A stretch of 64,000 nucleotides of DNA from Candidatus Omnitrophota bacterium (GTDB lineage Bacteria > Omnitrophota > Omnitrophia > Omnitrophales > Aquincolibacteriaceae), in NCBI GenBank assembly GCA_035368605.1, contig DAOSLF010000010.1, forward strand, positions 766 through 64,765, in the 5' to 3' direction. The position numbers and the translations under genes are program-made. The notes beneath the pieces were generated by a model. The model saw only the letters and a program-made list of their open reading frames with translations. It was not told where the DNA came from and searched no databases. The first letter of the stretch is position 1. Each line of letters starts with the position of its first letter. This document shows, piece after piece, positions 4,904-48,700 of this stretch.

Positions 4904-5581
4904 CTATTCCTTTTTCAGCCGCCCGAGCAATCTCAAGAATCCGTCGAGGATGGTCATCGGATGCGGCGGGCAGCCGGGAATATAAAGGTCCACCGGGATT
5001 ATCGTGTCCAGGCCCCGGGACACTTCGGGACTCCGGGAAAAGATTCCCCCCGAGATCGCGCAGGCGCCCACGGCGATCACGATTTTGGGGTCCGGCACCG
5101 CCTCATAGGTCTTGAGGAGCGCCTCTTTCATATTACGCGTCACGGGGCCCGTGACGAGGACTCCGTCGGCATGACGCGGCGAGGCCACGAACTGGATACC
5201 GAAGCGGCTGAGGTCGAAAACGGGGGTGTTCAGGACGTTCGTATCCGCCTCGCAGGCATTACACCCCCCCGCTGAAACCTGCCTCAATTTGAGAGACCTG
5301 CCGAACAACTTCACGATCTTTCGATTCACCGCGCGCGCCAAGGCATACGTTTCGCCCTGAAGGACGAGATCCTGCCGGCGGCATGTCGCCATACGGAAGT
5401 CGTTGGAATGACGGATGCTGCTGTCCGGAACAAAGGTTATCTTTCCGAGATCGATCTCCTCCTCCGGGCCTGCCACGAGGGGACGACCGCGGTAGCGGGC
5501 GGGCAGAACCGGCGGTTTTCGTTTGGGAAAAGCCATCGTCCGGCACCCCTGCCTGAAACGCGTCATCAAGATCTTCAGCAT
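4904..5581 (-). CDS. group-4 hydrogenase small-subunit-like / NuoB-like protein (EhrS-like)
   Basis: Four Cys of the proximal FeS cluster are retained (GGCNAC, GACAISGG, GCPPHP). GAGG RBS upstream of the start at 5581. Confidence 0.75.
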   Translation of the reverse strand: MLKILMTRFRQGCRTMAFPKRKPPVLPARYRGRPLVAGPEEEIDLGKITFVPDSSIRHSNDFRMATCRRQDLVLQGETYALARAVNRKIVKLFGRSLKLRQVSAGGCNACEADTNVLNTPVFDLSRFGIQFVASPRHADGVLVTGPVTRNMKEALLKTYEAVPDPKIVIAVGACAISGGIFSRSPEVSRGLDTIIPVDLYIPGCPPHPMTILDGFLRLLGRLKKE

Positions 5582-7132: not shown

Positions 7133-8560
7133 TCAGGCCCCGATCAGGGCCGCCGCTTCATGCAAAAGACCGCTCAAGGGGGCCGGCATCCAGAGTCCCA
7201 GCCCGACAAGCAGCGCGGCGGCGGCCGCTATGGTGATATTCATGAATAAATTCTCGCGCGGGGCCGGGGCCGGTTCTACCGGTTTGCCGTAGACGAGATC
7301 CAGCACGAGCCTCGAAATCCCCATGAAAATGACGGCCAGACACACAATGATGATCCCGGCCAGGACGTAATGCTCCGAGATAACGGAGGCGTTGATAATC
7401 AAAAGTTCGCTGTGAAAGGTCGCAAACGGGAACATCCCGGTCCCCGCCAGAAGCGCCACGAGCAGAAAAACGCCTGTCACGGGATAGAGATGAATGACCC
7501 CCCGGACCTCCGGGGCGCGGGACGATCCGTATTTCTGGGCAAGGGACCCCGCCGTGAGGAACATCACCACCTTGGCAAGGGCATTATTGATCATGTGGAA
7601 CAAGGCGCCGAAGACCCCGACTCCGCCCATGCCGAGCCCGAGGACCAGCAATCCCACATGCTCGACCGAGGAGAACGCGAAGGACCGCTTGAGGCTCTTC
7701 TCATCCAGGAGAAATACCGCGGGAACCACGAGCGACAGAACACCGGCCACGATCAAGATCGATCCGTAGAAATCGCCGAGCCCTGTTTTGTGACAGATCT
7801 GGCTCACGCGCATCAACGCGAGGAAAGAGCACTGGGTCAATCCCCCCGCCATCAGGACCGACACCATACCCGTCGCCTGGCCATAGGCCTCCGGCTTCCA
7901 GCTGTGCATTGGGGCAAGCCCCATCTTGCAACCGTATCCCACGAACAGGAAAATAACGCTCAATTTCAGCCAGCTGGTTGAAAGCAGGGGCGCGTTGTTC
8001 AGGATCGCGGGCAGGAGAAGCGTACGCGTCTCGTGGGCCGCGATCGCAAGGAAGAACGTTCCCATGAGCGCGAGCGCGATCCCGACGGAGCAAACCAGCA
8101 GATATTTCCAGGTAGCCTCCAGGCTTTTCCAGTTCCGGTGAAAGCTGATCAAAGGCGCGCTGAAAAGCGTGGTCGTTTCGATCGCCACCCACATCAGCCC
8201 GAGATGATAGCTCACCGACACCATCGTCGTCATCGAAAGCAGGCACAGGATGCAGGCCGTGAACGTGCGGTTGTTCCGGTGCTCGCGTTCGAAATAACCA
8301 ATCATGAAGAAAGACGTCGCCAGGAAAAGAAGGTCCAGGATCGAAAGGAGGAGGAGGCCGAGAGGATCGAGCACGAAATAGCCCTGAAGTTCCGGACCCG
8401 GCCGCCGCCACCAGAAGGACGCCACGACTGAGGCGTGGAAGAGCGAAACCGCGCACAGGAGCCGGACCCTGAAGATGTTTTTCGCCGGCAACAGGACAAT
8501 CAGAGCGGCGATCAGCGGGACCGCGATCAGAAGGATCAGCGTCATCAGCTCTCCCCCCAC
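7133..8560 (-). CDS. NuoM/N-like antiporter-type membrane subunit (HyfF-like)
   Basis: 475 aa, about 14 TM helices, PF00361-like conserved core. Confidence 0.7.
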   Translation of the reverse strand: MGGELMTLILLIAVPLIAALIVLLPAKNIFRVRLLCAVSLFHASVVASFWWRRPGPELQGYFVLDPLGLLLLSILDLLFLATSFFMIGYFEREHRNNRTFTACILCLLSMTTMVSVSYHLGLMWVAIETTTLFSAPLISFHRNWKSLEATWKYLLVCSVGIALALMGTFFLAIAAHETRTLLLPAILNNAPLLSTSWLKLSVIFLFVGYGCKMGLAPMHSWKPEAYGQATGMVSVLMAGGLTQCSFLALMRVSQICHKTGLGDFYGSILIVAGVLSLVVPAVFLLDEKSLKRSFAFSSVEHVGLLVLGLGMGGVGVFGALFHMINNALAKVVMFLTAGSLAQKYGSSRAPEVRGVIHLYPVTGVFLLVALLAGTGMFPFATFHSELLIINASVISEHYVLAGIIIVCLAVIFMGISRLVLDLVYGKPVEPAPAPRENLFMNITIAAAAALLVGLGLWMPAPLSGLLHEAAALIGA

Positions 8561-9199: not shown

Positions 9200-10135
9200 T
9201 CAGTTCCTCCATAGAGTGACGATCAGGCTGAAGAAGGCCAGGGCGAACGCGATCAGGAGAAGCAGCCTTACCCGATTGAGACGCAGGCGCGCCATAATGG
9301 ACTCCACGATCCCCACGAGAACCGCCATCGCGAACACCCCGCCAAGGAAGATCCCGGTGTCGACCGCCGGATGCCCCGTCCGCACGGGGATGATGATCGA
9401 AACCAGGATCGCGAAAAAGAGAAACAACTTCATCGCTGAGGCATAGAGCAGATAACCGAGGTCGACCCCGCTGTGATCCAGGATCATCACTTCATGGATC
9501 ATCGTGAGTTCCAAATGAGTGTCCGGATCGTCGACCGGGATACGGCAATTTTCCGCAAGGAGCACGATAAAAAAACTCCCCACCACGAGCAGCAGCACCG
9601 GATCCAGGCCTTTCCACGACATCGGGATATCGGCACCGATCATCCGGGAGAGCGAAAGACTCTCGGAAAGCAGCGACAGCGTGATGAAATTCATGAAAAG
9701 GGCCAGCTCCGACAGACACGAAAAAAAAGCTTCGCGGCTCGCTCCCATACCCTCGAAGCTGGACCCGGTATCCAGGGCGGCCAGGATCATGAAGAACCGG
9801 CCCAGCGCCAAAAGGTAGGCGACCAGCAGGATGTCTCCGGGAAACTGCACCGGGGCCCGGAACCTTCCGAAGGGAACCATCAGGGACAGGATCAACATGA
9901 CCGCGAGAGAGACGACCGGGGACGCGCGAAAAATCCACGTCGTCGTGGAACTGTAGACACATTTCTTGCGAAAGAGCTTCGCCAGGTCGAAGTAGGGCTG
10001 AAGGAGCGAAGGCCCCTTTTTCCCCGCGAAAAACGCCTTCACCCTGGCGATCACGCCGAAGAGCGCCGGCGACAACGCGCCGATGACCAGCCAGTGGAGC
10101 AGGAACGTGACCGCCTTATTGAACAGTAGACTCAC
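9200..10135 (-). CDS. NuoH/HycD-like membrane subunit
   Basis: 311 aa polytopic membrane protein with NuoH-like conserved charged loops, at the hyfC-equivalent position. Confidence 0.7.
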   Translation of the reverse strand: MSLLFNKAVTFLLHWLVIGALSPALFGVIARVKAFFAGKKGPSLLQPYFDLAKLFRKKCVYSSTTTWIFRASPVVSLAVMLILSLMVPFGRFRAPVQFPGDILLVAYLLALGRFFMILAALDTGSSFEGMGASREAFFSCLSELALFMNFITLSLLSESLSLSRMIGADIPMSWKGLDPVLLLVVGSFFIVLLAENCRIPVDDPDTHLELTMIHEVMILDHSGVDLGYLLYASAMKLFLFFAILVSIIIPVRTGHPAVDTGIFLGGVFAMAVLVGIVESIMARLRLNRVRLLLLIAFALAFFSLIVTLWRN

Positions 10136-17039: not shown

Positions 17040-17060
17040 ATCCAACCTCGTAGGTTGGAT
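17040..17060. repeat. REP palindrome ATCCAACCTCGTAGGTTGGAT (copy A)
   Basis: 9-bp inverted arms around a 3-bp centre, immediately 3' of the RAYT gene. Confidence 0.7.
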
Positions 17061-17065
17061 ACCGG

Positions 17066-17725
17066 TCATTCCATCATCAAACCCTTGAGAATGGCTGTTT
17101 CCCTTTGAGCATCCCGATGCTTCTCCACAAAGTTTTGATATTCCGCAGATGTAAAATCAAAAACACCTTGAAACGCACAAAGCCCTGGCTCCTGGGACGA
17201 CCGGGACAAATACTCCTGATAGGAAGAGTGCTCCCATTCGCCCGGCTTGTTGACCAGACCGGCGCTCGCAGGATTCAAATGGATATAGCGTGACAAATGC
17301 AAGGCTTGTTCATTTGTTTTGACGCGAACATTTTTGAAGCGCCCCTCCCAAAGGGGTCCTTTCCGCTTATGCCTCAGATTAAAATACCGCGCATAACCAT
17401 TGAGGAGCCTTCCCATGAAAACAGATATACCGTTCGTTGCGGATTGCCTGAGAAACAAATGAATATGGGTCGGCATAAGGCAATAGGCGATAATATGAAC
17501 CAGTCGTTCTTTCTCCCGCCGCTCGGTCATCCGCGGGGTCATGTCCTTTCCAAGCCGTTTGAGCCACGAAAATTTCATGGCAGGATCCGAAACCTGGTGA
17601 AACTCCAGAAGCGATTTCATTCGGTCGAATTCGTCTTTATGGTTAAAAATGACGAATCCCGCGATACTTTTCGTATAAACATGGTAATACTCCCCCGTCG
17701 CCAACGGATCCTTGCGAACCTGCAT
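17066..17725 (-). mobile_element. REP-associated tyrosine transposase (RAYT, IS200/IS605 TnpA-like HUH enzyme)
   Basis: GEYYHVYTK N-terminal motif, HUH motif PTHIHLFL, catalytic Tyr motif YIHLNP. Flanked by inverted REP copies. Confidence 0.8.
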
Positions 17726-17749
17726 CTTTGAATCCTCGATTCCACCGCC

Positions 17750-17769
17750 TCCAACCTACGAGGTTGGAT
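17750..17769. repeat. REP palindrome (copy B, inverted orientation relative to copy A)
   Basis: TCCAACCTACGAGGTTGGAT is the reverse complement of copy A, on the other side of the RAYT gene. Confidence 0.7.
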
Positions 17770-17851
17770 ATGGTTTTAAGTAATATTTTGTTTGCTTATA
17801 ATATAATAACCGAAAGGATCCGTCCACTTTTTCTTGCGCTTCGAGACCGAA

Positions 17852-17872
17852 ATCCAACCTCACAGGTTGGAA
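17852..17872. repeat. REP-like variant ATCCAACCTCACAGGTTGGAA (copy C)
   Basis: Same arms with CAC centre, 5 bp after the stop of the 3601-aa gene. Confidence 0.55.
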
Positions 17873-17876
17873 TTGG

Positions 17877-20800
17877 TTAGGCGGCGGAGGCGAGGGAGCG
17901 GGCGGCTTCGGCAGCGATCTGGATATTCTCGGCCAGGAGGAGAATGGCACTCAGCGGCTGCACGCCCCGCGGGAGGTCCTTGTTCTCAAGCAAGGTGTTG
18001 AGGGAAGCGATCAAGCCGTAGGACCTCTGGCTCAGCGTCATCCCCTTGTCGTTATAGACCGAGAGCACCCGTTTCCCGCGGCCCGCCTTCGCGAGCGACG
18101 GCGCGAGCGAGCGCAACCCGGCCCCCTCGTCACCGCGCAGGTCATAGACCAGGCCGCCTTCGGAATTCCGTCCGAAGAATCCCGCAATTTTCATTTCGTC
18201 GGAGTCAACCGAAAGATCGATCCTCCCGCCCGCCTTGCGCGCTTTTTGCGCCATTTTCATGAGCATCCGGCTGAACTCCCCGAGCTCGGTCTTCGACACA
18301 CCCGGGATGATGATCTGAAAAAGGAATTTGCTGTTCGCGATCAGGACCACGAGCGTTTGAAGGACGGGATCGTTCGCCGCGGGGACCGCGTCAAAGATCA
18401 CCGCGACCTGCTCCCTCCCGCTCTCAAGCTTCACCGGATCCATCAGCAGGTCTTTTGCTTCCCGAGTCCCGGAACCCGGGGTCCGGATCTTCATCGTGTG
18501 TGCCGCTGGCACCAGGGAATCGAGGACTCGCCCGAGTTCCGCCCGTCCGATCGCGAGTACTCGCTCCTGCCGGAGCACATACGCCGCCGCTCGCGCCACG
18601 CCGATTTCGTTTGGATCGAGGATCCGTTTCTGGCTCTCCGCCAGGGAACGCTTTTCGCTCCGCCGGGCTGAAAGAGGAAGCCCCGCGACGTTCTTCGACA
18701 GAACGGAGCCGTCCCTTCTTTTCCCCGGCACCCCCCCCCTGTCTTCGGTCGGGGCCATCCTTTTCTCGCTGCGGGGATCTCCGGTCTCTGGTTCAAAAAC
18801 CCAGCGGAGCACGGTGACGTTATCCAGTGCCTTGTGATCGCCGGCCAGGACCACATAGTCATCGGCCATACGCCCCTTGAGAGACAAATCCCGTATCCTT
18901 CTGTCCCGCTCCACGCGTCCGCCCGGGTCATCTCCGTGTATGCCATCCGTGGCTACAAGAATCTCGATAGACTCCCGTGCGTCCGTCAGATCGATCTTCA
19001 GAATCTCGGGCTTCCGGATCAGCGTGGGCGAAAAAGCGCGGTCGCCAAAACCCCGCGTCGTGGTCGTGGACCTCCCCGTTCTCAAATTCCGGATGAAAAC
19101 GCGCCCGTCCTCCGCCGCAACCTCAAATCCGGGCGCGGGGCGCATATCCGGGTCTTCCGCGACCCCATGTTCGGGAAGCGGCACCGGCTCTCTCCGGTCC
19201 TTGAAAATGTAGACCGGCGAATCGCCGAGAATCATGACGTATGCGGTTTTCCGGTCCTTCGGGACATAGACGAGGGACAGCGTCGATCCCGAATACATCC
19301 ACGCGGTCAGTATCTGGAGGATGCGATTCGTCCCCGCGAGCGCCGATTCAATATTCCCCCGGTGCCAGAGGACCAGCACCCGGAAAAACGGAACAAGCAG
19401 GGCCCGGAGGAGATTGACCGCACCGGCGCCCCCGTGACCGTCCATCACCGCCATCATCCGCCCGCCGCCGCCCGGGAATCCCGAGATCAGAGAACCGACA
19501 TTCCTGTGGAAGAATCGGTCTTCCTGCTTCCCGCGAATCCCCTCGGCCTGGGCCGTCTCGAATTCACCGAAAATTTCGCCGAGCATGACCTTCAGGGTGC
19601 CGGCGATGATCCGTACCATCAATTTTCCGGACCAGCTCAGGACTTCGTCGGCATTCCGATCCAGGGCACGGATAAGCTCCGCCCGCGTCGGCGGCCCTTT
19701 CCCGAACCTGCGCTGCCACATGTGGAAAGAACACCAGCCGGGTTTTCGGGTATTGAACACCGTGGCGTAGGAAGGATAGATATCCAGTTCCTGCTGTCGC
19801 AGGGGACGCGGTCCGACGATCGACATTTCGCCTTTGAGGATGTTGATCGCCTGAGGGAGCTCATCGAGTCCCGTCCGGCGCAGGAATGCCCCGAAGCGGG
19901 TCGGCACCCTGTTGCCCGATACCGGCATCGTCCGGAATTTGTATATTTTGAAAAGCTTCCCTTTATAACCCGGGCGCTCTTGCGTGAAAAAAACAGGCCA
20001 TCCGATGAAAGGCGCAAAGACCGCGGTCGCGGCGGCAAGAACCGGCATAATGATAAAAAGAGACGCGACGATATCGATAGCCCTGAGCCACGGCGCCCAT
20101 TTCGCGTAAGGCGACCCCGCGAATATTTTCTCCGTGATAACTTCCGGGGCTGATTGTCCCGCAGGAGCTTTCTGCTTCGTGCCCGGTTCTGTGCGGACAC
20201 GCGGCGTGAGTTCCCAAATGCCGGGAGCTTCGAGGAGTTTTTTCCAATCTTCGATCGGAACGAACCGGTAATAGCTGATATCGCGGCCGTCCTCTCTTTC
20301 GAACTGAACGCTATGAAGCCTGGCATACGTCCCCGCCTTCAGGCTGTTTTTCGCGCCGTCCGACTCGATGAACCCGCGGAAGTGGAAGATGTCCCGCCGA
20401 TCCTGTCCCTTGCTGTCGGGAGCGTGCGGGATATAAAGTACGGCGCCGCCGGTAAGCCGCCGGGACGGGTCATCGAGCTTCTGCGAGGAAGAAACCTTCA
20501 TCAGTTCCGCGAGCGCCCCGGGATAGTCTTTGTCGTAAGAATAGATCGACCCGAGCTTCCGGAGAGCGTCATTGAAGGCCCGATGCGCGTCTTTTTCCTC
20601 AGGCCCCTTCAAAACCACCATATCCAACCTCGTAGGTTGGATGGGTTGCCGTACCTCCGGGCGGGAAACGGGAATGGATCCGTCCGTGCCTTGTGGCGAA
20701 CCGGAACGCGTCGGGTGGGCGAACTCCCGTGACAGAATCCTCTCGAAATCTTTCGGGATCATGACGCCATCGCTCATTACGAATTCAAAAGCGCCCGCGT

Positions 20801-23800
20801 TCATGTCGCTCCACGCCTGGGCATAAACCTTGATATCCGTCAGGAAAATTCTTCCGGAAGCGTCAATCGCGAATTCGATCACCAGCGGATGGCGAAAATA
20901 ATCCTGCCAGAACCGGGCAAGTTGATAAATTTCCCGGAGCTGGGGATTCCCGAGCGCGGCTTTCTGTCCGTCATTTTCCGGGATCTCTTCCGTCACAAGC
21001 CCTTCCCCGTCCGGATCGAGTGATTTTTGAGTTCTTTTTTCTCCGATATGGATCTTCGTAAAATCGTCGGGGGCATCCATCCGCACCAGATCCGTACCGA
21101 CCTCTTCCTGGGATCCCGCCGTCAAGCCGTATCCGGCACTCAGGACCATCGTCGAGCGGTTCACCGTAAGCACTCCGGAAACCTTTGCGGGGATCATCGG
21201 CTGGACAAACACGCTCATGAACCCGCCGAACATGTCCGTCCCTCTCATCTTACGCACCCCGATCGCCCGGGGCGTCCATGCGGAAGCGATCACTTCCTGG
21301 GCGGCCGCCGCAAGATTCTCCGCGCGAACCCCGATAACCGAGGCGTGAGTTCCCGGAAGAACAGCCCCGGAACTTTCCTCCTGTCCCGCCGAGCGCACGG
21401 CAAAACGCGCCTGCCGCCTGTCCCGGACAAGTTTTCCGGTCCACGCTTCCCATGGAAAATCCCTCAACCCTTTGCCGGGCCCATCAAGAAGCTGACGGAT
21501 TTTTTCGTAGCGTTTCCCGGCCGGGATATCTTCTTCCAGGATTCGCCGTATTTCGGGTTCAAAAGGCCCGACAGCCTCCTCAAAAGCCTTTCGGGTCATC
21601 ACGAACCCATCCTCGATAAAACCCGGTGCCCGGGGATCCGCCTCTTTCAGGACCAGCGCCTCTCCAAGCTCCCGGGCCTTTCCTCCGACCTCCTCCGCCG
21701 CGAAGAACGTCTGATTCAACCGCACGGCCGAAACGTCCTTGAACGGTTCTCTCTTTTCTTTGGATGTTTGTTCATAACTCTCGCGCAAATTTCGAACGGC
21801 CGGCAGATCCGTCAGTCCGAAATGTTCGGCTTCCTTTAACATCCTCGCGAGGGCGGGGAGGTCGGACGACACGATCTTTTTTTCAGTCGCGCTTTCCATT
21901 TTCGCGATTAACTTTCTGCTCAGGTCTTTCCAGCGGCGCATCACCTCTCTCTTGAAATCCCCCGTCTCCCGGACAAACCCCTGGTCCGCTTCGAAGCGCG
22001 GCCGGTCGCCTCCGAGACAGGCGTTGGCAAAAGCAACAAAGGATTCATACGCACGCATTCTCTTTTTCGTTTCCAGAAAAAGGGAAACAATCTCCTGGGG
22101 AAACGTGGTGTCGGTCACCTTCCCATGCGCCGACCGGAGCCAGTTCCGGAGTTCTTTTTCGCTCCGGGAAATATAACGGGCCAACTCCCCTTCGGAAACC
22201 CTGGCCTTGGCAAGCAAGGCCTTTTTCATATCGTCCGGGATCGTTCCGGAGGAAAGGATTTCCGACAAAAGATAGTCCCGCTGCCTCGCCGACAACGCGC
22301 CAAGATCGAATTGTTTGAGATCCCCCGCCGTCAGCAATCCGGCCTCCGCCTTTCCCAGAAGATCGAACTGCCGTCGAAACATCCTCGATGTCCCGAGAAT
22401 CTCTACTTTCCCGGTCTCATCCAGAAGCACGATCGTGTTTTCATCAGCCCGCACAAGGTCGGGAATCTCGCGGATTTGCCGCACCGAATAGCCTCCGATG
22501 TTTACGGCGGAATCTTTCTCGTATCTCCGCAACTCGAATCCGTCGGGCTGTTGCTCCCCGTTCCGGTGAATATCGATGTCCGGCAGACCGACCCGGTGCA
22601 CGCGAAGGCTTTGCAGCGAGAGATTGGTATGGCTCGTTAAATTGGCCAAACCCGACGATGTCTGCAGAATGCCGGCAATGCTGGAATCCTCCGCGCCCGG
22701 ATCTTTCGGGATCATCGCGATATCCTGATCGGAAATTTCATCGCGCAGCAGCACGTATCGCTCGTGGGAGGGCGCGTGAGAAGGCAGGCGCGTCACCAGC
22801 TTTCCCGCGCGCGGGGCAAGGCTTGGCGAAAATCCGCTCCCCTTGCAGCCATAAGTCAATTCCGGCGAAGACGTCTCAAGCCCTTGTCTTAAAGTTTCCT
22901 CTTTCACCGCCGTGTCCGCGGAGACATCAAACCTGGGGGTCATGAGCGGATAAAAAACCTCGAGCTGATCTTCGATCTCTGCGGCCAAGACCGTCCCGTC
23001 TTTTTTCTCCGCCGAAAGAACATAAACGAAAGAGCTCTGGTCCGCGTTCATCAGGGCATAGAAAACACGCGCCTGTCCCGGAAGCTCCACGGCAACCCTG
23101 ACCGCAAGAAAACGCCCGATCAGGGCAAGCGGTTTAAACCCGGAAAAATAATGCCGCGGAAGACGGTTTAAAACCTTCGCGCTTGCGAAAGACTGGTCCT
23201 GTTCGCCGACCGGCCGCGATAAAGCGTTAAGGAGCCGTTCGACCGGGGTTTTCCATTCGCTGTATTCGGGATTTTTCCCGAGAACACCGTCCCCGCCCCG
23301 GATCAGCCTTCCTTCGAGCAAGCCCTGCCGGATAGGCTCGACAAGATATTGGGCAAAAGACACCTGGTTCAGGAAAATCTCATCTTCGGGGAAAGGCTCA
23401 AGACCCAGCCCGGCAAGAATCCTGTTAAAATAATCCCGGGCTTGACCGACAGAAGATTGCGTGCGGAACATACGCATCCTTTTATCGATCTCCCCTTCAA
23501 TGTATTGAAGGGGCAGACGCGGATACCTCAGACCCATACCGGTCTTTCCGGCGGCATTCGCATCCGCTTCGGCCTGGCGGACCCTTCGGATGAGTTCCTC
23601 AAAAAGGAGATTGTCGGGGATATCCTTCAAAAGGTCCCGGCTCATTCCCAAATAGGCTCCCAGCATGGAGTCCATATTCACCAGACCCAGTCCCGAATAA
23701 AGCAGAACCGGTACCCGGCGGGACAGCGCGAAAAGCGAATGGGGCTCTTTCGCCGCGTCTTCATTTAAACGGGCTGCCACGGTCGGTTGGATCGTTGTCC

Positions 23801-26800
23801 TCAAAGTATTCCCGAGGGCCTCTCCGCCGGCATCGTTCCCTCCCGGCATCAGCAGAGCGTCCAGGTTCCCCTGGTTGCTCACGGGTCCCAGGGATAACGC
23901 CATGACCTGGTAATGCGCTCCGCGCGTCGGCTTGAATGTGAGCTTCGCCAGACTTCCGTTAAAGACCAGCGCCTCCTCGTAGGGGCCGACCAATGACGGG
24001 AAAGCCACCCCTGAAACGGGTTTCCGGTCGCGGGCCGTCCCGATCCCGTCGGCGACATAATCAGGAAGCGCGGGAGGCAAACTCTCCAGAAGAAAAGTCA
24101 GCGCCGCGGAATTCCTGCCGGAAAGCGTGTTATACGATGTCAGGTCCGTCAAATGGACGGGCGCGACCGCCTCGGTCTTTTCCGCAGGATCATACCGTAC
24201 CATCGGCGATACCACATGCAGGCCCGGATCGATAAGAACATTATAAAAACGGCTCCGCATCAACTCCTTGCGGTCGAGTCCCCGGAGCACCTCCGTCTTC
24301 CGCTGGTCTTCGGGGTCCGAAACGATGTTCCCAAAATGCGAGAGATAATAGTGGTGAAGAAAATTAACAAATTCATTCAGGATCTGCGCCCTCCGGATCC
24401 GGCTTTCCGGCCACTCGTAATCATGTTCCCACCCCGGAGAAATGGAAAGGAGGCTCGAGGGCGCGCTCGTCCGGCTCTTGCGAAACAACTCTTCCTTCTT
24501 CGCGGCAATCCGGCTGAAAAATTCGCGTTCCTTTTCCTGCCGGAACGCTCCGCGGAAGAGGTCCTTGAACGCGGAGGCGAAGGCGGTCACGGATTCCAGA
24601 AATTCATGCCGCTCCAGCTCCTTGAGGCCGGAACTTGTCGCGATAGCCTGTGCCTTTTCCCGGACTTTAAGATGCATCTTTTCAAATTCCGCCACGCGGG
24701 CGTCCAGAACGTTCCGGTTGATGGAATAAAAACCCAAATTCCAGAACGGGCCGTCTTTGCGAATATTCCTGCCTGTAAACAAAGAGGCCATATTCTCGGG
24801 AACGGCAAATCGCATCTCCTGATTCAGGAGGGCGCGCTCGTCCCCCGAAGGAACGGTGTCATCGTCAACATCTCCTTCGATGTCGGGGTCTTCATTCCGG
24901 ACAACCTTCGCTCGCTCCGGCGTTTCGGGCACAAAACTGATATAGACAATTTTCTCGAGATGAACAAGGTCGCTGAGATGCGCGCTCGTGACCGGCATCC
25001 CATAGAGTGTCCTGAAATTACGGATCACTTCCCTCAGTTTTTCAGCCCCTCCGAATTCCCGAACCGCGCGGTCGAGATTCTTTTTCATGAATTCACCCGT
25101 CAACCCCGCCCGGAGCATGAGCATGGGGTGCAGGAGCGCGCCAACGCCGGAATCCGTTTCACGGGCAATTTTCCGAAAATAATCAAAATCCTCACGGGAC
25201 ATGCCCGCGGCAACGGCCCTGCCTCTCAAATCTTCCAGAATCTCCGGCGTGACGGGGATTCTCCGCAGGTTTTCCCCGGCCAGGAATTTCAGTGAATCGG
25301 GATGAGGCCCTTTTAGCGCCCCGGCAAGAGCATCGAAGGAGTCGTGGATTTCCAGCAAGACTTCAGGGTCCTCCCGAACAAGACCGGCCAGAACGGCTCC
25401 TGCCTTTTCTTTTCCGGTTCGATCCGGGCTATGGAGCTGTCGTATCAACTCGGAGATTTGAGAACTTCTTGCCCGATTTTTATCATCCACCGGCTCGGTT
25501 CTCCGGTTTAGAAGAAGTTCCCGATCCGGGGCCGGAGGCTCCCGTTGTTCGGAACGGACGGACAAATCTTTGACGGGCTGAAGGATCGCCCGGACGCCTT
25601 TCGGAAAATATTTTTTCGCTATATCGTCCCGGACCATCAGCAACGCGATATAACGGTCCGAATGTGCGAACTCCTGGGATGTGGCCCCGGCGAGGACCGA
25701 GTAAGCTTCGCTGAAAGGCCCCATGATGTCTTCCCGCAGGGCGAAGGTCAACCCCGTGGTAATGACCATCGCGGGTTCAAGCCGTTTCACTTCCTCCAAA
25801 AAACTCATTTCCTCCCCTTCGGAATAAGCTCCGAAAACATAGGAGATGTTCATGACCACGATCGCGTCCTTCCACTCCGCGGGGTCCACCTCCCCCGAAT
25901 CCAGGGCTTTCCCGAGATATTCCACGGTCTGGTGGCGGTTCGGCTCCCAGCCGTTACGCTTGAGATTCCCAGCCAAACGGGCGCGTTTTACGGCAACAGG
26001 TTCCACAAAAAGGACTTTCGGGGAGTTCCGGAAAAACAATCCCAGTTTTCCGTCACTCGCTCCAAAATCAACGGCCGGGAAATCCTGAACGACCGGCCGG
26101 AGCTGTTGCATCAGTGCAAGAGCAACGTGAGCCGACGCGACCGGCGTTTCGGACCGCCCCATAAAGTCGGGGTTTTCCAACGCAATAAACTGCACATCCG
26201 GATACCGGGACGTCGCGGGGCCGAGGATCGCCCGAGTCGCAGGGTGATCCCGGTAATAAACGACATCTCCGTGCCGGCGAACGATCACCTGCTTTTCCCC
26301 GGATCCGTCGATGTCCGCTTCAAAATAATCCAGGGGGACCAGATCCCCATCCCGATTCGCGGAATGATAAAAATCATGTATCACGTCCGGGAATTTCTCA
26401 CGAAAGAGGGGGAAGAGCTCCCTGATAAAATCCCCCTCCACGGATCCGATCGATTCGTTGAGCGCGGCGCGGACCGCCTTGGGGAGGCTGGACATGAGAC
26501 CTTCCAGGCTCACCATCAAACGGTCCAGACATTCTCCTGCGTTAAAGTAATAGGAAGGATTCCCGATGTAGGCGGAAAGAGACGGAAAATCCCGTTTCAG
26601 ATGTTCAGTGACGCTTTTTGAACGCGCGAACGTGTCGGGAACGGCATTGTAACCGTAGGTCACTTTAAAACGATCCGGCCTTCGGACAAAATAAACCGCC
26701 CGTTGAGCCTCCGCGACACTCAGGAACGGTTTCACGTCTTCGTCCCGAAGCCTCGCCTCGGCGCGACCTTCCAACGGTTTCAACCGCGCGGGCCGACGAG

Positions 26801-28682
26801 GGTCCCGCGTAAGACCGTGGGCCGCCAGGGCCGGAGACCTGAGGGAAGCGATCAACTCACCGACAGGCGTTTTTCTCCGGCTGCTGATCACGTGAAGGGC
26901 TTCCCGGAATATTCCAAGAAGGCGATCAGCGGTGGCGGACCCAAGGTCTTGACGCAGGAGATGATATCCGGACGCGAACGAAGGAGGGCGGACATTGGAC
27001 GACCGGAATTGTCGTTCCGGCCCCGGAGACGAGGTCCGGTCTTTAAGGAGCATCGCATCCAGGTAGGCGCCGGGTTTGCCGGGTTTCGTGATGCGTGGCG
27101 TGACCCGCACGCAGGAGATCCCGGCCTTTTTCAGGAATTCCGTAACGCCGGTGGAGTGGTAACCGCCGGTAACGAGTACGGCGTTCGGCTGTTTCATTGC
27201 CTTCATCCGCGCGATCATGTTCGCAAGCAGGGCTTGCTCGCGGGCTTCAGCGGTTTCGTAAAACGCCCGGGCCTGGTTGAGCGCCGCCCGCACGGGGCTT
27301 CCGTCCGCCGGTTTTACTCCGGGCTCCGCACCCCGCACTGACTTTTGATATTCCTCACTCGTCAATTCCAGGCTGAAAAGCTTCTTCAGTATCCGGTACT
27401 CCCTGTACCGCTCGACCAGCGCCTTCTCTTCGGGCTTGCCGGCGAGTTTTTCAAGGATGCGGTCGTTCAGCCTTTCGACCTCTTCGAAAAGTTCGGGGGT
27501 CCGGAGTTCGGAGGAAAGGATCGCGCTGCCGATCTCCCTGGCCAGGACGGGATAGTCTTCGAATCTGAAACCGAGCGGTGAGGCGGATTCATAAAAACGC
27601 TCCACGGCCGTTCGGAAATCAGATGTAGTGCGGGGCGCGGAGTGCGGGGCGCGGCGTTTCAGATCATTGATAAATTCGCAAGAGTCCGGTTTGAGACCTT
27701 TCCCGCTCACCCATTCACGCAGTTTTGTTTCATCCACCCCGTGCTCCGTACGTTGTACGCCGTGCCCGGGTTTTTCAAGCTGTTGAAGTCTGAAAAATCT
27801 GACGAGTTGCGGCCAGTCATACTGTTCGTAAGGATCCGTGAGATCCAGGTCCAGATATTTCGCGGCGGCGCCGGCCATTCGATCGAGACCCGAGAACGGC
27901 TGATCCGCAACCTCGGTCCGGAAAGCCCATTCCCTGAAGAAGGTTTTGCATTCGGGGTTCAGGGTTCGGGAAGCGTCATCGGCGATCTTCTGCCGCTGAT
28001 CCCTGAGGAACGCATCGGTCCGCGGTTTGGCGGCATAGACCGCCCGGAACTGCTCGAGATTCTTTTTGTAAAGCGGAAGATCTTCCACGCCATGGACACG
28101 CCCCGGAACCTGGGCACGGGATACGGAGTACGGCTCAAGACCCGTTGACGCAGGCTCCGTGCCTCGGTCTCCGTACTCTGCACTCAAAAAAAGCTCGACG
28201 CCGCCGATCAGCCCGACCCGGTTCAATTCCTGAAGAAGCTCCCGATTGAGCTCACTGTCATCAAAGAACCGGAGCGCCTCGGGCTCCAGCTCTTGCCAGA
28301 CACCTTCGAGGTATACTGTATCAAGATTGTAATATTCGCGGAGATATTCGAGGATTCTGGCGATGTTCTCCTGCCCCTCCGGCTGCCCGTGGGCCTCCTC
28401 AATATGGACAATGAGTCCGGAAGAAGGACTCGCGGGACCGGCCGCGTAGCAAGTTTCCCGTATTGAACCGATCTCCGGGGGGATGACGATGTGATCCGGA
28501 AGCGTCAGCGACCGGATCTCCGAACTCCTTATTCCCGGCTCCGTATCGAGTGCGGGCATTCCCCACGCAATCGTGGTCGTGACAAAGCAGATCAGCGTGA
28601 ACAGACTGACCGCGCGAAGATAGTGACAAATCCTGCCTTGGTTTTTGAGCATAGCCGGACTGATAGAACGCCTTTCCTCCAA
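17877..28682 (-). CDS. giant 3601-aa multidomain protein. Order: N-terminal TM, shared ~450-aa His-motif domain, Rossmann/MTase-like segment, swivel-His-like domain, PEP-synthase/PPDK-type ATP-grasp domain, PglC-like phosphoglycosyl transferase, PP2C phosphatase, 300-aa C-terminal tail.
   Basis: Single uninterrupted ORF. Individual domain motifs are listed in the findings. Confidence 0.8.
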   Translation of the reverse strand: MEERRSISPAMLKNQGRICHYLRAVSLFTLICFVTTTIAWGMPALDTEPGIRSSEIRSLTLPDHIVIPPEIGSIRETCYAAGPASPSSGLIVHIEEAHGQPEGQENIARILEYLREYYNLDTVYLEGVWQELEPEALRFFDDSELNRELLQELNRVGLIGGVELFLSAEYGDRGTEPASTGLEPYSVSRAQVPGRVHGVEDLPLYKKNLEQFRAVYAAKPRTDAFLRDQRQKIADDASRTLNPECKTFFREWAFRTEVADQPFSGLDRMAGAAAKYLDLDLTDPYEQYDWPQLVRFFRLQQLEKPGHGVQRTEHGVDETKLREWVSGKGLKPDSCEFINDLKRRAPHSAPRTTSDFRTAVERFYESASPLGFRFEDYPVLAREIGSAILSSELRTPELFEEVERLNDRILEKLAGKPEEKALVERYREYRILKKLFSLELTSEEYQKSVRGAEPGVKPADGSPVRAALNQARAFYETAEAREQALLANMIARMKAMKQPNAVLVTGGYHSTGVTEFLKKAGISCVRVTPRITKPGKPGAYLDAMLLKDRTSSPGPERQFRSSNVRPPSFASGYHLLRQDLGSATADRLLGIFREALHVISSRRKTPVGELIASLRSPALAAHGLTRDPRRPARLKPLEGRAEARLRDEDVKPFLSVAEAQRAVYFVRRPDRFKVTYGYNAVPDTFARSKSVTEHLKRDFPSLSAYIGNPSYYFNAGECLDRLMVSLEGLMSSLPKAVRAALNESIGSVEGDFIRELFPLFREKFPDVIHDFYHSANRDGDLVPLDYFEADIDGSGEKQVIVRRHGDVVYYRDHPATRAILGPATSRYPDVQFIALENPDFMGRSETPVASAHVALALMQQLRPVVQDFPAVDFGASDGKLGLFFRNSPKVLFVEPVAVKRARLAGNLKRNGWEPNRHQTVEYLGKALDSGEVDPAEWKDAIVVMNISYVFGAYSEGEEMSFLEEVKRLEPAMVITTGLTFALREDIMGPFSEAYSVLAGATSQEFAHSDRYIALLMVRDDIAKKYFPKGVRAILQPVKDLSVRSEQREPPAPDRELLLNRRTEPVDDKNRARSSQISELIRQLHSPDRTGKEKAGAVLAGLVREDPEVLLEIHDSFDALAGALKGPHPDSLKFLAGENLRRIPVTPEILEDLRGRAVAAGMSREDFDYFRKIARETDSGVGALLHPMLMLRAGLTGEFMKKNLDRAVREFGGAEKLREVIRNFRTLYGMPVTSAHLSDLVHLEKIVYISFVPETPERAKVVRNEDPDIEGDVDDDTVPSGDERALLNQEMRFAVPENMASLFTGRNIRKDGPFWNLGFYSINRNVLDARVAEFEKMHLKVREKAQAIATSSGLKELERHEFLESVTAFASAFKDLFRGAFRQEKEREFFSRIAAKKEELFRKSRTSAPSSLLSISPGWEHDYEWPESRIRRAQILNEFVNFLHHYYLSHFGNIVSDPEDQRKTEVLRGLDRKELMRSRFYNVLIDPGLHVVSPMVRYDPAEKTEAVAPVHLTDLTSYNTLSGRNSAALTFLLESLPPALPDYVADGIGTARDRKPVSGVAFPSLVGPYEEALVFNGSLAKLTFKPTRGAHYQVMALSLGPVSNQGNLDALLMPGGNDAGGEALGNTLRTTIQPTVAARLNEDAAKEPHSLFALSRRVPVLLYSGLGLVNMDSMLGAYLGMSRDLLKDIPDNLLFEELIRRVRQAEADANAAGKTGMGLRYPRLPLQYIEGEIDKRMRMFRTQSSVGQARDYFNRILAGLGLEPFPEDEIFLNQVSFAQYLVEPIRQGLLEGRLIRGGDGVLGKNPEYSEWKTPVERLLNALSRPVGEQDQSFASAKVLNRLPRHYFSGFKPLALIGRFLAVRVAVELPGQARVFYALMNADQSSFVYVLSAEKKDGTVLAAEIEDQLEVFYPLMTPRFDVSADTAVKEETLRQGLETSSPELTYGCKGSGFSPSLAPRAGKLVTRLPSHAPSHERYVLLRDEISDQDIAMIPKDPGAEDSSIAGILQTSSGLANLTSHTNLSLQSLRVHRVGLPDIDIHRNGEQQPDGFELRRYEKDSAVNIGGYSVRQIREIPDLVRADENTIVLLDETGKVEILGTSRMFRRQFDLLGKAEAGLLTAGDLKQFDLGALSARQRDYLLSEILSSGTIPDDMKKALLAKARVSEGELARYISRSEKELRNWLRSAHGKVTDTTFPQEIVSLFLETKKRMRAYESFVAFANACLGGDRPRFEADQGFVRETGDFKREVMRRWKDLSRKLIAKMESATEKKIVSSDLPALARMLKEAEHFGLTDLPAVRNLRESYEQTSKEKREPFKDVSAVRLNQTFFAAEEVGGKARELGEALVLKEADPRAPGFIEDGFVMTRKAFEEAVGPFEPEIRRILEEDIPAGKRYEKIRQLLDGPGKGLRDFPWEAWTGKLVRDRRQARFAVRSAGQEESSGAVLPGTHASVIGVRAENLAAAAQEVIASAWTPRAIGVRKMRGTDMFGGFMSVFVQPMIPAKVSGVLTVNRSTMVLSAGYGLTAGSQEEVGTDLVRMDAPDDFTKIHIGEKRTQKSLDPDGEGLVTEEIPENDGQKAALGNPQLREIYQLARFWQDYFRHPLVIEFAIDASGRIFLTDIKVYAQAWSDMNAGAFEFVMSDGVMIPKDFERILSREFAHPTRSGSPQGTDGSIPVSRPEVRQPIQPTRLDMVVLKGPEEKDAHRAFNDALRKLGSIYSYDKDYPGALAELMKVSSSQKLDDPSRRLTGGAVLYIPHAPDSKGQDRRDIFHFRGFIESDGAKNSLKAGTYARLHSVQFEREDGRDISYYRFVPIEDWKKLLEAPGIWELTPRVRTEPGTKQKAPAGQSAPEVITEKIFAGSPYAKWAPWLRAIDIVASLFIIMPVLAAATAVFAPFIGWPVFFTQERPGYKGKLFKIYKFRTMPVSGNRVPTRFGAFLRRTGLDELPQAINILKGEMSIVGPRPLRQQELDIYPSYATVFNTRKPGWCSFHMWQRRFGKGPPTRAELIRALDRNADEVLSWSGKLMVRIIAGTLKVMLGEIFGEFETAQAEGIRGKQEDRFFHRNVGSLISGFPGGGGRMMAVMDGHGGAGAVNLLRALLVPFFRVLVLWHRGNIESALAGTNRILQILTAWMYSGSTLSLVYVPKDRKTAYVMILGDSPVYIFKDRREPVPLPEHGVAEDPDMRPAPGFEVAAEDGRVFIRNLRTGRSTTTTRGFGDRAFSPTLIRKPEILKIDLTDARESIEILVATDGIHGDDPGGRVERDRRIRDLSLKGRMADDYVVLAGDHKALDNVTVLRWVFEPETGDPRSEKRMAPTEDRGGVPGKRRDGSVLSKNVAGLPLSARRSEKRSLAESQKRILDPNEIGVARAAAYVLRQERVLAIGRAELGRVLDSLVPAAHTMKIRTPGSGTREAKDLLMDPVKLESGREQVAVIFDAVPAANDPVLQTLVVLIANSKFLFQIIIPGVSKTELGEFSRMLMKMAQKARKAGGRIDLSVDSDEMKIAGFFGRNSEGGLVYDLRGDEGAGLRSLAPSLAKAGRGKRVLSVYNDKGMTLSQRSYGLIASLNTLLENKDLPRGVQPLSAILLLAENIQIAAEAARSLASAA
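18798..19520 (-). other. PP2C-type Ser/Thr phosphatase domain within the 3601-aa protein
   Basis: RMMAVMDGHGG, ILGDSPVYIFKD, LVATDGIHGDD metal-binding motifs. Confidence 0.65.
19698..20075 (-). other. PglC-like monotopic phosphoglycosyl transferase (bacterial sugar transferase) domain within the 3601-aa protein
   Basis: Re-entrant hydrophobic helix, then FFTQERPGYKGKLFKIYKFRTM and TGLDELPQAINILKGEMSIVGPRP. This closely follows the PglC/WbaP catalytic-domain consensus, including the DE dyad. Confidence 0.8.
20622..20642. repeat. REP palindrome copy D, located in-frame inside the 3601-aa ORF
   Basis: Identical to copy A. Translates on the minus strand as IQPTRLD within ...VRQPIQPTRLDMVV... 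Confidence 0.7.
20800..21698 (-). other. PEP-synthase/PPDK N-terminal-type ATP-grasp nucleotide-binding domain within the 3601-aa protein
   Basis: AEEVGGKARELGEAL ... PGFIEDGFVMT (GGKA nucleotide-binding motif + PGF) and downstream DMFGGFMSVFVQPMI. Confidence 0.55.
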
Positions 28683-45781: not shown

Positions 45782-48700
45782 TTACGCGCTTCTCGCCGTC
45801 GCGAGGTACTCGGCCTGCATCTGTTCGACCATCTGACTCACGCCGAGACCGGCCAGGTTGAGGAAGTTCCGGAACATCTTCTGGTCGATCGTGACAACAT
45901 TGTCCTTCAACTGCTCGGCCAGAAGCGCCGCCTGCGGATTGTTCGCTCCCGCGAAAATCATGGCCTTCAGATTCAGGGAAGTGCCGCGGGCCCCGGTTTC
46001 CCGATCGGCGTCCAGGAGTTTTCTCGTCGCTTCATCCAGATCAGCGGCCGGCAGGATGGGAGGCCGGTTGGCCTGGCGGAGCCGGGCGTTGATCTTTTCA
46101 AGGAAACCAAGGTCCGCAGGATCTTCCGTCAGGACAACCGTGCGGATATTGCCAAACACATTGCGGATCACATAAACAAGACCGCGCTTGAAAGCGGTTT
46201 CGGGGTCAAGCACAAGCGCGTCGTTCGCCTGGAGCGTTTTGACCCCAAGCGACCGCCGAAGCATCCGGACGGTGAATTCGCTCTGGAATTTCTCCGGCCA
46301 GCTCGCCACCGTGACGGGCGCGGTCACCCTGGCGACCGGGGCCAGATTTTCAAGGATGATGTTTTTGATTTCATAGGAATACGCGAGAAGCGGTACGATC
46401 CCGTCCATGATCTTTTCCGTCACGGCGCGCATCGCGCGTTCGGACGCACCACTCAGGCGTTCATGATCCAGGAGAAACTCCTTATAGGTCAACACCGGGC
46501 CGGAGGCCGTGACAAGACCTCTCAATTCGCCCGCGATCTTCTGAGGCCGTGTTTCTGTCGAACGCGTTTCCGCGCGGGGGGCAGCAGAGCCGTCCAAAGG
46601 CGCCTCAGCCGCGGATTCGTTTTCCGTTTTAACGGACGGGATGACGGTAATGCCGGTCCCTTCGCGCTCGAGCTTCCAGAGACCGAGCTTCACACCCAGG
46701 GCAAGCGCGATCTCTTCCTGCGGCCGCAGCGGTCTTTCGGTGTTGTGCCCGAAAAGGTCCTTCAGGGAAATGACCGGCGGCATTCCTTGAACCGTTTTGG
46801 CCGGCGGCGGCACCAGGGCCTCCAGGATCGTCCGGATCCCGTCCTGGTTTTCTTTAATAAACCTTCCGCTAACACGGACAACGCGTTTCGTTCCGCGGAC
46901 CGTTATCCCGATCTCCGTATCTCTCGGATATTCCCTGCCGCCACGCTTGATCACGAGAGAATCCGCATAGAGCTTTTCAAAGGTCGCCGTTTCCCCGGCC
47001 GCTTCGTCTTTTTTAGCCCACTCCACGGCAGCGGCGTATTCGCCGATCGTCACGATCAGAAATGCCCGGTCGTCCTTCGAAAGCGTGAACTGTGTTTCAA
47101 AACGGTCAACAATCGCCGCAATCTCATCCTGTACCACCTCAGGGATCGCCCGTTTATTCATCGCGCCGTAGCGGCGGATAAGTTCGACATCCGGTTTCTG
47201 TTCGAGGGCAGTCACGAGGGCGGCCCGGCTCTTTTCGGCGGAGGACGGTCCTTTCGCCTTTTTCACGGAAGTCCTGGCCTCGGCGCGGACCGTCACCGGG
47301 GGTTTCAGACTTTCAAGAAAGCGGCTCGCGCGAAACAGCCCTTCAAAACCTTTGCGGCCACCCGAAACCAGTTCATGCCCGAGGAACAATTTTGCGGTCT
47401 TGCGAACGCCTTCGTCAGGATGGGAGGCGGCCACTTCCTCAAGCTCCTTGCGAACCCGGGCTTCGTCAGCCGCCGCGTTACGCAGTTCGGCCCGGGCGTG
47501 GTATTTCAGAACGCCGGCAAAAAATACGGCAAAGGACGCTGCCGGAGCCGCCGTCACCATACCCTTTGCCGCGGCCTGCGCTACTGCACGCAACTCGCTC
47601 CGCTCGCTCCACGCAGCGGGCCTTTCGCCGCTCGCTACCGGCGCGTCAGGGCGGTTTATGCCGACGGGGATCATCTGGAGCACCTGGAAACGCCATCCCG
47701 ACTGCTGAACTCCGGCAGGGTCCTTGCGCTTCACAACAGGCACGCCCACGCGCCAGCCTTCCCTGGAAAGAGAGGCTAACGTGTGTTCCCGCTCATAGAC
47801 CGTGTTCGCGGTCCAGTCACGTACTTTATAGACGGTCCCGGGAAGCAATCCCAACCGGTTGATGCTGCCCAAACCAAACCAGACCTTTCCTTCCTCTTTA
47901 TTGTAAGGCGTCTTGGCGAAATGGATCGGAATGACCACATGCCGCTTCTGTTCCGTCCCGTCCACCCTCTCGGTCACGGTGCGGGTAATGACAACGGCGG
48001 AGTCACGACTCGCATCATTGAGAAAGATGTCTCCTTTTTCAAAAAGATCTTTCATCTCCGGATCGGCCATGATCGCCTTCAGAGAGTGATACACTTCAGG
48101 ATCCCAGTCGCGCATATCTTCAAGGAATTCCGGTATCAGCCCCGCGATAAAAGCCATCACAGGACGCACGCCCTCGCTCCCGAAGCCCAGTTCCGAAACC
48201 ATTTTCCCGCGGGACAACGTAGAGATCGCCTTGAGACGCCGCTTCAGGTTTTCCGGGTCATGCCTCAAAAGATAGATCACTGTTTTTTTGAGCCAATAAC
48301 CCCGGGAGCGCTGCTGCCGGACCTGATCTTTGGGGTCCCCGGACACAAGCGCCCGGAGATCGTCGATAATGAACATTTCCTGGGATTGCTTTTGGGGACC
48401 TTCCAGTGCCATCTCCCCGGTTGGACGCAATCTCAGGATCTGAATGTCCGGTTCCGGAACGCCGATCGGAAGCGCCCCGCGGGACAGCGCCCAGAATGGA
48501 TAGGGTTTCCTGTCTTCGCCGTCACCGTAGATCTCGCCGGTGATGACGTTCGACACCTCATAGGCCATTTTCGATTCGGGGTCCGTTTGTCCGGTCAACC
48601 ACTCAAAAACCTTTTCCCCGTAGAATTGCCCCCAGGCTTTCGGCTCGCCGCCTTCCACCCCGGGATATTTCGGCTCCCCAAGGTTCAGCGCCACAATGTA

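Follow-up and report, generated by a model that had tools for sequence, protein, structure and literature searches.

The stretch of DNA analyzed here (64 kb, referred to below as the window; positions 766 to 64,765 of contig DAOSLF010000010.1 of a Candidatus Omnitrophota bacterium) carries a giant open reading frame (ORF) with a repetitive extragenic palindromic (REP) element inside its coding sequence. The ORF (17877..28682, minus strand) encodes 3601 aa; in public records the protein has 3591 aa and is annotated as a 'sugar transferase'. The protein contains an N-terminal family domain, PPDK_N, Bac_transf, a PP2C-like region and a C-terminal family domain. An exact copy of the 21-mer ATCCAACCTCGTAGGTTGGAT is located at 20622-20642 within this ORF. 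All REP copy counts given for this species refer to the window.

The coding strand of the REP core (20622..20642, minus strand) reads ATCCAACCTACGAGGTTGGAT, folds into a 9-bp stem with a 3-nt loop and is translated as IQPTRLD (aa 2681-2687), in the context ...VRQPIQPTRLDMVV..., also given as ...SRPEVRQPIQPTRLDMVVLKGPEEK.... The frame of the giant ORF is unbroken across the REP, and the element is translated as QPIQPTRLDMVV.... The sequence-only reading of this DNA, which had reported an exact 21-bp REP copy read as IQPTRLD in the giant ORF, was borne out on this point. It was equally right in placing the copy between the ATP-grasp and phosphoglycosyl transferase (PGT) domains, since the limits of the Pfam domains PPDK_N (ATP-grasp type; 20841..21695, minus strand, aa 2330-2614) and Bac_transf (PGT; 19581..20084, minus strand, aa 2867-3034) enclose the translated element, which lies in a P/S/G-rich stretch.

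A gene for a Y1 (HUH) transposase resembling the REP-associated tyrosine transposases (RAYTs) is located 2.9 kb from the in-gene REP (17066..17725, minus strand, 219 aa) and is present in one copy in the 64 kb. The protein contains H87-I88-H89 and a tyrosine, Y147, within YIHLNP. It matched the Pfam model Y1_Tnp (PF01797) with 37 bits (cut-off 23), and the best NCBIfam model was that of the REP-associated tyrosine transposases (NF047646; 61.2 bits, under the cut-off of 80), the IS200 model giving 17.7. The score below the cut-off, yet far above that of the IS200 model, indicates a distant relative of the curated RAYTs. The best match in the PDB was TnpA-REP of E. coli (4ER8, E=0.0014), with HIH (87-89) and YIHLNP (147-152) aligned. 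These matches uphold the claim that the repeats are a genuine REP family tied to a RAYT-like gene.

The window contains two exact REP copies (20622-20642 and 17040-17060) and two near copies (17749-17769 and 17852-17872). The 17040 copy (plus strand, loop CGT), whose core is identical to that of the in-ORF copy, lies directly downstream of the RAYT gene, and the 17749 copy (minus strand, loop ACG, one mismatch), inverted with respect to it, lies directly upstream. The remaining copy (17852..17872, plus strand) is a variant with the loop TCACA, situated 5 nt past the stop codon of the giant gene; together with the 17749 copy, at a distance of 103 nt, it makes up a doublet. Inverted REPs flank the RAYT gene both in the window (17040 and 17749) and at locus L005 of another genome; at a further locus, L016, both flanking REPs have the loop CGT. 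The arrangement of gene plus REPs recurs at L002/L016, L005 and L009, and the RAYT-like gene also follows the giant gene, in synteny, in another genome whose RAYT is 61% identical. An inverted REP doublet (approx. 100 nt apart, with an AT-rich spacer) is found between the stop of the giant gene and the start of the RAYT gene in the window (17749-17872) and in L016 (16351-16466); the spacer in the window contains a promoter-like site (17826-17798, minus strand), which may drive the RAYT gene.

All window copies (4/4) share a two-tier hairpin, a shape seen throughout the family, in which an outer ACC/GGT helix of 3-4 bp is separated by an internal loop from the 9-bp core stem; they are short imperfect palindromes with a stem-loop, in the size range of REPs (about 20-40 nt). 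In the case of the in-ORF copy the extended hairpin covers 35 nt (20613..20647, minus strand) and comprises an outer AACC/GGTT helix, the internal loop and the core stem. A covariance model (R1) built from 21 REP copies scored this copy at 46 bits (E=5e-11). No match to the 21-mer family was obtained in 100 shuffles of the sequence, compared with four copies in the window.

The closest relative of the in-ORF copy is the 17040 copy downstream of the RAYT gene. The two align locally over 49 nt, with the core identical at 21/21 positions, and have in common a tail (TTGAAGGGG..GAGGAAA) present on one side only. Because this alignment takes in the one-sided tail, the upper bound for the element is 54 nt (20594..20647, minus strand, aa 2679-2696, QPIQPTRLDMVVLKGPEE; hairpin plus tail), and a stretch of up to this length may, from sequence comparison, be derived from it; the flank-only similarity score of the tail was equalled by 75 of 5000 random windows. 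The idea that the inserted unit is 21 bp (7 codons) did not hold, as the hairpin has 35 nt, the similarity extends over about 49-54 nt and the canonical unit in a relative is 33 nt long. The 9-mer CCCCTTCAA occurs four times in the window (1.1 expected) and adjoins both exact REP copies. Apart from these two positions, it is found only in the two arms of a palindrome, CCCCTTCAAT-GT-ATTGAAGGGG, at 23492-23513 within the giant ORF (LPLQYIEG).

Just one of the six frames of the REP core contains a stop codon. The tetranucleotide GTAG is situated at the junction of the loop and the 3′ arm (CCT CGTAG GTTGG) and not at an end of the palindrome. The ATG directly after the core (DMVV) belongs to the ATATGGT outer helix seen in other copies of the family, and is therefore no evidence of an old start codon. 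As to RNA structure, a check proposed in the sequence-only reading, the in-ORF hairpin is not terminator-like, and the fold of the mRNA around the window copy is unremarkable in its context (z = -0.3). AlphaFold run without an alignment placed the REP peptide within a 44-residue coil, with a pLDDT score (40.7) too poor to establish disorder.

The in-gene copy was unchanged in nine contigs assembled independently from the same species (identity of 99.56-100% across 10.8 kb, with no indels), which indicates that it is fixed in the species and is not an assembly artefact; contig JAKPKJ010000061.1 is identical to the window. Every full-length member of the 90% protein cluster has 3591 aa. Two strain groups could be distinguished, separated in the giant gene by 31 non-synonymous and 12 synonymous codon differences, none of which creates a stop. 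Five of these 43 differences fall within aa 2629-2700 (20592-20800, 72 codons), about five times the gene-wide density, and none within the element.

Immediately before the REP the giant protein has an instance of the motif R-[SAP]-E-x-R (RSExR below), RPEVR (20649..20663, minus strand, aa 2674-2678), and the extended element starts 1 nt after it. Four giants were examined and contain 5, 13, 14 and 8 instances of the motif; the codons used for it differ synonymously, so that it is a motif of the protein rather than of the DNA. The loci concerned are 17877-28682 and 45782-59710 of the window, L016 (3001-16341) and L014. Conserved blocks between orthologous giants begin at RSExR motifs, and to judge from the sequences the motif resembles a boundary between modules or a site of processing. 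The second of these loci in the window (45782-59710, minus strand) is a giant ORF of 4642 aa, which shares 31.5% identity with the 3601-aa protein in the N-terminal domain; a further fragment of a paralogue, with weaker similarity, is found on the plus strand at approx. 59991-62183. No paralogue of the linker region was found within the window.

The site of the REP thus appears permissive: it lies between Pfam domains, is P/S/G-rich, has no homologues, shows clustered codon differences and follows an RSExR motif. The possibility that the REP is a chance resemblance, or a by-product of selection for the linker peptide, is effectively refuted. It could draw on the three (D/E)QPT(R/H)(L/F)G modules of L014, which also stand directly after RSExR and use different codons, but the identity at 21/21 positions, the outer helix and the shared tail are beyond the reach of selection on a peptide, the shuffles gave no matches, and the QPTR residues of L014 lie outside the hairpin of that module.

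The exact 21-mer was also found in representative genomes labelled as Omnitrophota, Saccharibacteria, Berkelbacteria and 'uncultured bacterium', with a G+C content of 35-55% (loci L001-L013). REP sequences usually differ between lineages, and a core conserved across phyla is unusual. RAYT homologues stand beside the REP in several of these genomes and are 44-61% identical, despite the identical 21-nt core, and the outer helix varies in sequence across the family copies but stays complementary. Exact copies were present on two or three contigs per genome in the relatives. Among the 20 copies examined in this set, 19 were extragenic and the in-gene copy of the window was the only one within a long ORF. 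The statement that REPs are normally intergenic is sound as a rule but not as an exclusive one, for in-frame intragenic REPs have been documented (PMC3733652). Covariance-model searches detected no decayed REP copies in the window or in any giant gene examined, and the REP was absent from viral contigs. Apparent half-sites at 54921/54943 and 12740 of the window were dismissed as chance matches. At L004 (3923-4604; Saccharibacteria) two REPs 665 nt apart flank an ORF of 147 aa, for which tblastn gave no match to the RAYT of the window (E<=1e-3).

An orthologue with an empty site was not present in any of the collections searched, nor was one of intermediate divergence. Word-index protein searches with aa 2330-3040 and aa 2600-2870 gave no matches. 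A HMMER scan of 1.84 billion representatives returned only matches to the PGT domain across the region, and nothing aligning over aa 2615-2840; a metagenome scan gave two identical loci with similarity only from aa 2830 on. A search with the N-terminal domain retrieved short fragments only. Look-ups of exact matches to the RAYT and to the superoxide dismutase (SOD) gene nearby, together with the 90% cluster of the RAYT, brought up no strain less than 99.5% identical to the window.

The only positional orthologue identified is P0001, a protein of 4446 aa from locus L016 (CAZDVO010000011.1), where the RAYT is 61% identical to that of the window. As in the window, genes for thymidylate synthase, DHFR, a lactamase_B protein, a TPR protein and Fe-SOD are located upstream, and a RAYT gene with a REP doublet is located directly downstream. 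P0001 and the giant protein of the window align in three blocks only: N-terminal (42% identity), PGT (52%) and C-terminal (about 30%).

An in-frame REP within the P0001 gene was predicted from the peptide IPPTRWDM and then confirmed in the DNA. This copy (9484-9516, coding-strand loop ACG) is a perfect 33-nt palindrome, ACCCATATCCCACCT-ACG-AGGTGGGATATGGGT, corresponding to 11 codons (THIPPTRWDMG), and the 71-nt mRNA stretch containing it has a folding energy of -36.5 kcal/mol (z = -5.9). The in-ORF copies of L016 and the window are alike in orientation (ACG loop on the coding strand) and in reading frame, and each follows an RSExR motif: the L016 copy starts 3 nt after RSEMR, the window copy 1 nt after RPEVR. 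Their positions in the gene differ, as the L016 copy lies downstream of the PGT domain and the window copy upstream of it. The flanks of the two copies are not demonstrably homologous, since the score for the downstream flanks was reached by 3 of 300 shuffles and the upstream flanks gave no signal.

The L016 in-ORF copy carries the form CCCACC/GGTGGG in both arms, which elsewhere among 21 aligned copies is found only in one arm of the REP downstream of its own RAYT gene; outer flank aside, these two REPs differ at one stem position. In each of the two genomes the in-gene copy is therefore closest to its own RAYT-adjacent REP, which indicates that copying or homogenisation postdates the split of the lineages. 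The L016 REP lies within a 117-nt segment (9466-9597) bounded by identical 15-mers, CGCTCCGAAATGCGC (RSEMR). The same segment contains a second, unique hairpin of 43 nt (fold z = -6.4), and from its sequence it looks like an inserted block.

We consider it probable that the element goes back to a local copying event, in which a REP of the RAYT-associated type entered a permissive spacer after a module boundary of the giant gene, and that it is carried there as a translated passenger. The RAYT-adjacent REP could have entered the giant gene by RAYT-catalysed cleavage and joining of single-stranded DNA or as a templated patch. Such a copy would survive the filter of selection if its length kept the frame, its sequence was free of stops in five of six frames and it fell into a flexible spacer between modules. 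Cleavage at RSExR has been suggested for giant proteins of this kind; if it takes place here, the residues added by the element would form a harmless N-terminal tail of the next product. At present the element would amount to about 11-18 translated residues within QPIQPTRLDMVVLKGPEE, with no required role in the protein. An action of REP/RAYT on the giant gene, as put forward in the sequence-only reading, receives indirect support from the in-frame copy of the orthologue with its private REP variant; that the gene was 'remodelled' by REP/RAYT is speculation.

Several observations weigh against local copying into a passive spacer. The family is sparse, with one copy outside the RAYT cluster in 64 kb, so that the term 'repetitive' applies weakly. 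The RAYT scores below the curated NCBIfam cut-off (61.2 versus 80), and as no empty site was found the insertion is deduced, not observed. The direct repeats flanking the L016 copy (15-mers 117 nt apart) are unexpected from a HUH Y1 enzyme; enzymes of this type are not known to yield flanking direct repeats. Moreover, the L016 copy is a perfect palindrome with a 15-bp stem, which fits either a recent origin or selective maintenance. Finally, the in-ORF copies of both genomes share orientation, frame and adjacency to RSExR, and are thus more regular than a neutral passenger predicts; the passenger model explains this placement only through strong selection or a target preference.

A second possible origin of the in-ORF REP is gene fusion. 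The REP would once have been intergenic, following an upstream gene that ended near aa 2680, and loss of the stop codon would have fused the two genes and turned the spacer into coding sequence. The ATG directly after the core (DMVV), at which one gene caller began an ORF on a truncated contig, agrees with such a history, as do the position of REP copies elsewhere at gene ends and the tail shared with the 17040 copy, which there overlaps the ribosome-binding region of a small gene. We nevertheless regard a fusion as quite improbable. The ATG comes from the element itself, ATATGGT being part of the outer helix in other copies, and the REP abuts RSExR, a mark of internal module boundaries rather than of gene ends. 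The sequence shows no trace of a former stop codon, and all nine assemblies read through without a break in the frame. In P0001 and L014 the PGT module is embedded far inside one continuous ORF, which in P0001 also encodes the family domains of the N-terminus and the C-terminus, and this argues that the single polypeptide is ancestral.

The relatives contain further in-frame palindromic modules after RSExR motifs. One, of approx. 80 nt, is present at 5266-5349, 7528-7611, 8386-8469 and 10036-10119 of L014 and at 5921-6002 of L016, and is absent from the window. It encodes QDI[HL]SPAR[IT]RAGTKEV[PL]AE[LM]R and contains the hairpins CAGGAC..GTCCTG and GCTGGGAC..GTCCCAGC; between the two genomes its DNA is 89-93% identical, compared with only 65% for the DNA of the PGT domain. 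It has the appearance of a second intragenic palindromic element, either mobile or strongly constrained. A third module (803-858, 2225-2280 and 5966-6021 of L014; core CTCGGAGACCGGGTCTCCGAG) encodes (D/E)QPT(R/H)(L/F)G.(R/P)VSEG and shares QPTRL with the REP peptide of the window, in different codons. The suggestion that the linkers of all giants in this family are DNA palindromes was rejected, since P0080 (L046), a more distant giant, has a protein-level (G)ASLG motif and no repeated palindromes.

An alternative to a passive passenger is that selection maintains the in-ORF REP as a functional site for the RAYT, and that this REP and those at the 3′ end of the giant gene bracket a cassette of the PGT, PP2C and C-terminal parts. 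REPs at RSExR boundaries would then be points at which modules are excised, inserted or swapped, and this would explain the scrambled interiors of the orthologues. Indeed, two genomes with RAYTs just 61% identical both have the RAYT gene and its REP doublet immediately after the giant gene, and in the window the in-ORF and RAYT-downstream copies are in direct orientation, 3.6 kb apart. Both in-ORF REPs share orientation and frame and abut RSExR, and the L016 copy is a perfect palindrome. The interiors of the orthologues are unalignable and the conserved blocks start at RSExR: the PGT block of P0001 begins at aa 1702, after RSEAR (aa 1697-1701), and the C-terminal blocks at RSEKR/RSESR. The other palindromic modules after RSExR in the relatives, with their 89-93% DNA identity against 65% for PGT, point in the same direction.

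The nine assemblies, however, show no rearrangement, indel or cassette polymorphism over 10.8 kb, and the REPs do not match the boundaries of the alignable blocks between the two orthologues. The L016 in-ORF copy is inverted with respect to its RAYT-downstream copy, so that the geometry seen in the window is not conserved. In addition, the P0080 giant has its GASLG linker motif at the protein level without palindromes, and degenerate older REPs were not found in any giant gene examined. A selected cassette boundary is therefore unlikely in our opinion, and we retain the copying of a RAYT-associated REP into a permissive spacer as the preferred explanation.

A broader notion, which we hold to be doubtful, is that in this Omnitrophota clade RSExR boundaries are preferred sites for the landing or retention of in-frame palindromic elements and serve as joints for module exchange, with the RAYT as a domesticated diversifier. 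The elements involved would include the REP of the giant-adjacent RAYT and at least two other palindromic module families of the relatives. If this speculative reading were true, it would bear on how giant genes change their domain content.

In IS200/IS605 elements and their non-autonomous derivatives, hairpin ends are recognised in single-stranded form by a Y1 HUH enzyme, and the unit extends past the hairpin on one side. The REPs described here resemble them in the hairpin with its one-sided extension, but the flanking hairpins are inverted, not direct, and there is no TnpB. Since the RAYT gene is syntenic in two distant genomes, a domesticated RAYT fits better than an active IS. In common with known REP/REPIN-RAYT systems (Nunvar 2010, PMC2817692; Bertels and Rainey 2011, PMC3116915; E. 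coli TnpA-REP, 4ER8), a Y1 HUH gene is flanked by inverted hairpins, an inverted REP doublet about 100 nt apart stands beside the gene, and dispersed singletons occur in the same genomes. In contrast to these systems, the protein is distant, the copy number is apparently low, and several candidate phyla share an identical 21-nt core.

In-frame intragenic REPs and Rickettsia palindromic elements (RPEs) have been documented, also in modular proteins and in a bacterium of the PVC group (PMC3733652). Among the GTAG repeats most intragenic cases were found in O. terrae (Verrucomicrobia, PVC group), and REPs lie inside uvrA of O. terrae and of Thioalkalivibrio (Di Nocera et al. 2013, PMC3733652). 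As in the present case, those intragenic GTAG/CGTC REPs are palindromes of the RAYT-linked type in frame in real genes, to which they add about 10-30 residues, and the authors argue that the insertions are tolerated in modular proteins. The REP classes of that study are recognised by GTAG or CGTC, a conserved tetranucleotide that terminates the palindrome on one side, whereas here GTAG is at the junction of the loop and the 3′ arm, there is no 5′ terminal tag, and the family is sparse in the 64 kb. The host also differs, being a giant multi-module gene beside a RAYT, with a positional orthologue that has its own in-frame copy.

The Rickettsia RPEs are likewise selfish palindromic repeats in frame in functional, translated ORFs, although RPE-1 represents longer palindromic elements (via PMC3733652) than the 33-54 nt observed here. 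The intragenic REPs RPE-4 and RPE-6 of R. conorii are of the CGTC type, a class without a dedicated transposase according to that study (PMC3733652), in contrast to the adjacent RAYT-like gene of the window. The two papers on Omnitrophota giant genes make no mention of palindromes inside ORFs. In-frame REPs as such are already known, and the present case stands out by the RAYT next to the gene, the orthologue's parallel copy and the adjacency to RSExR.

In-frame REPs show that selfish hairpin repeats can turn into protein sequence. The presence of an own variant in the same giant gene of two distant genomes, in both cases right behind a motif that marks a module boundary, provides a testable hint on the insertion-tolerant positions of multi-module proteins. 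For annotation, the start 'MVVLKG...' called on truncated contigs should be treated with caution, as it is repeat-derived.

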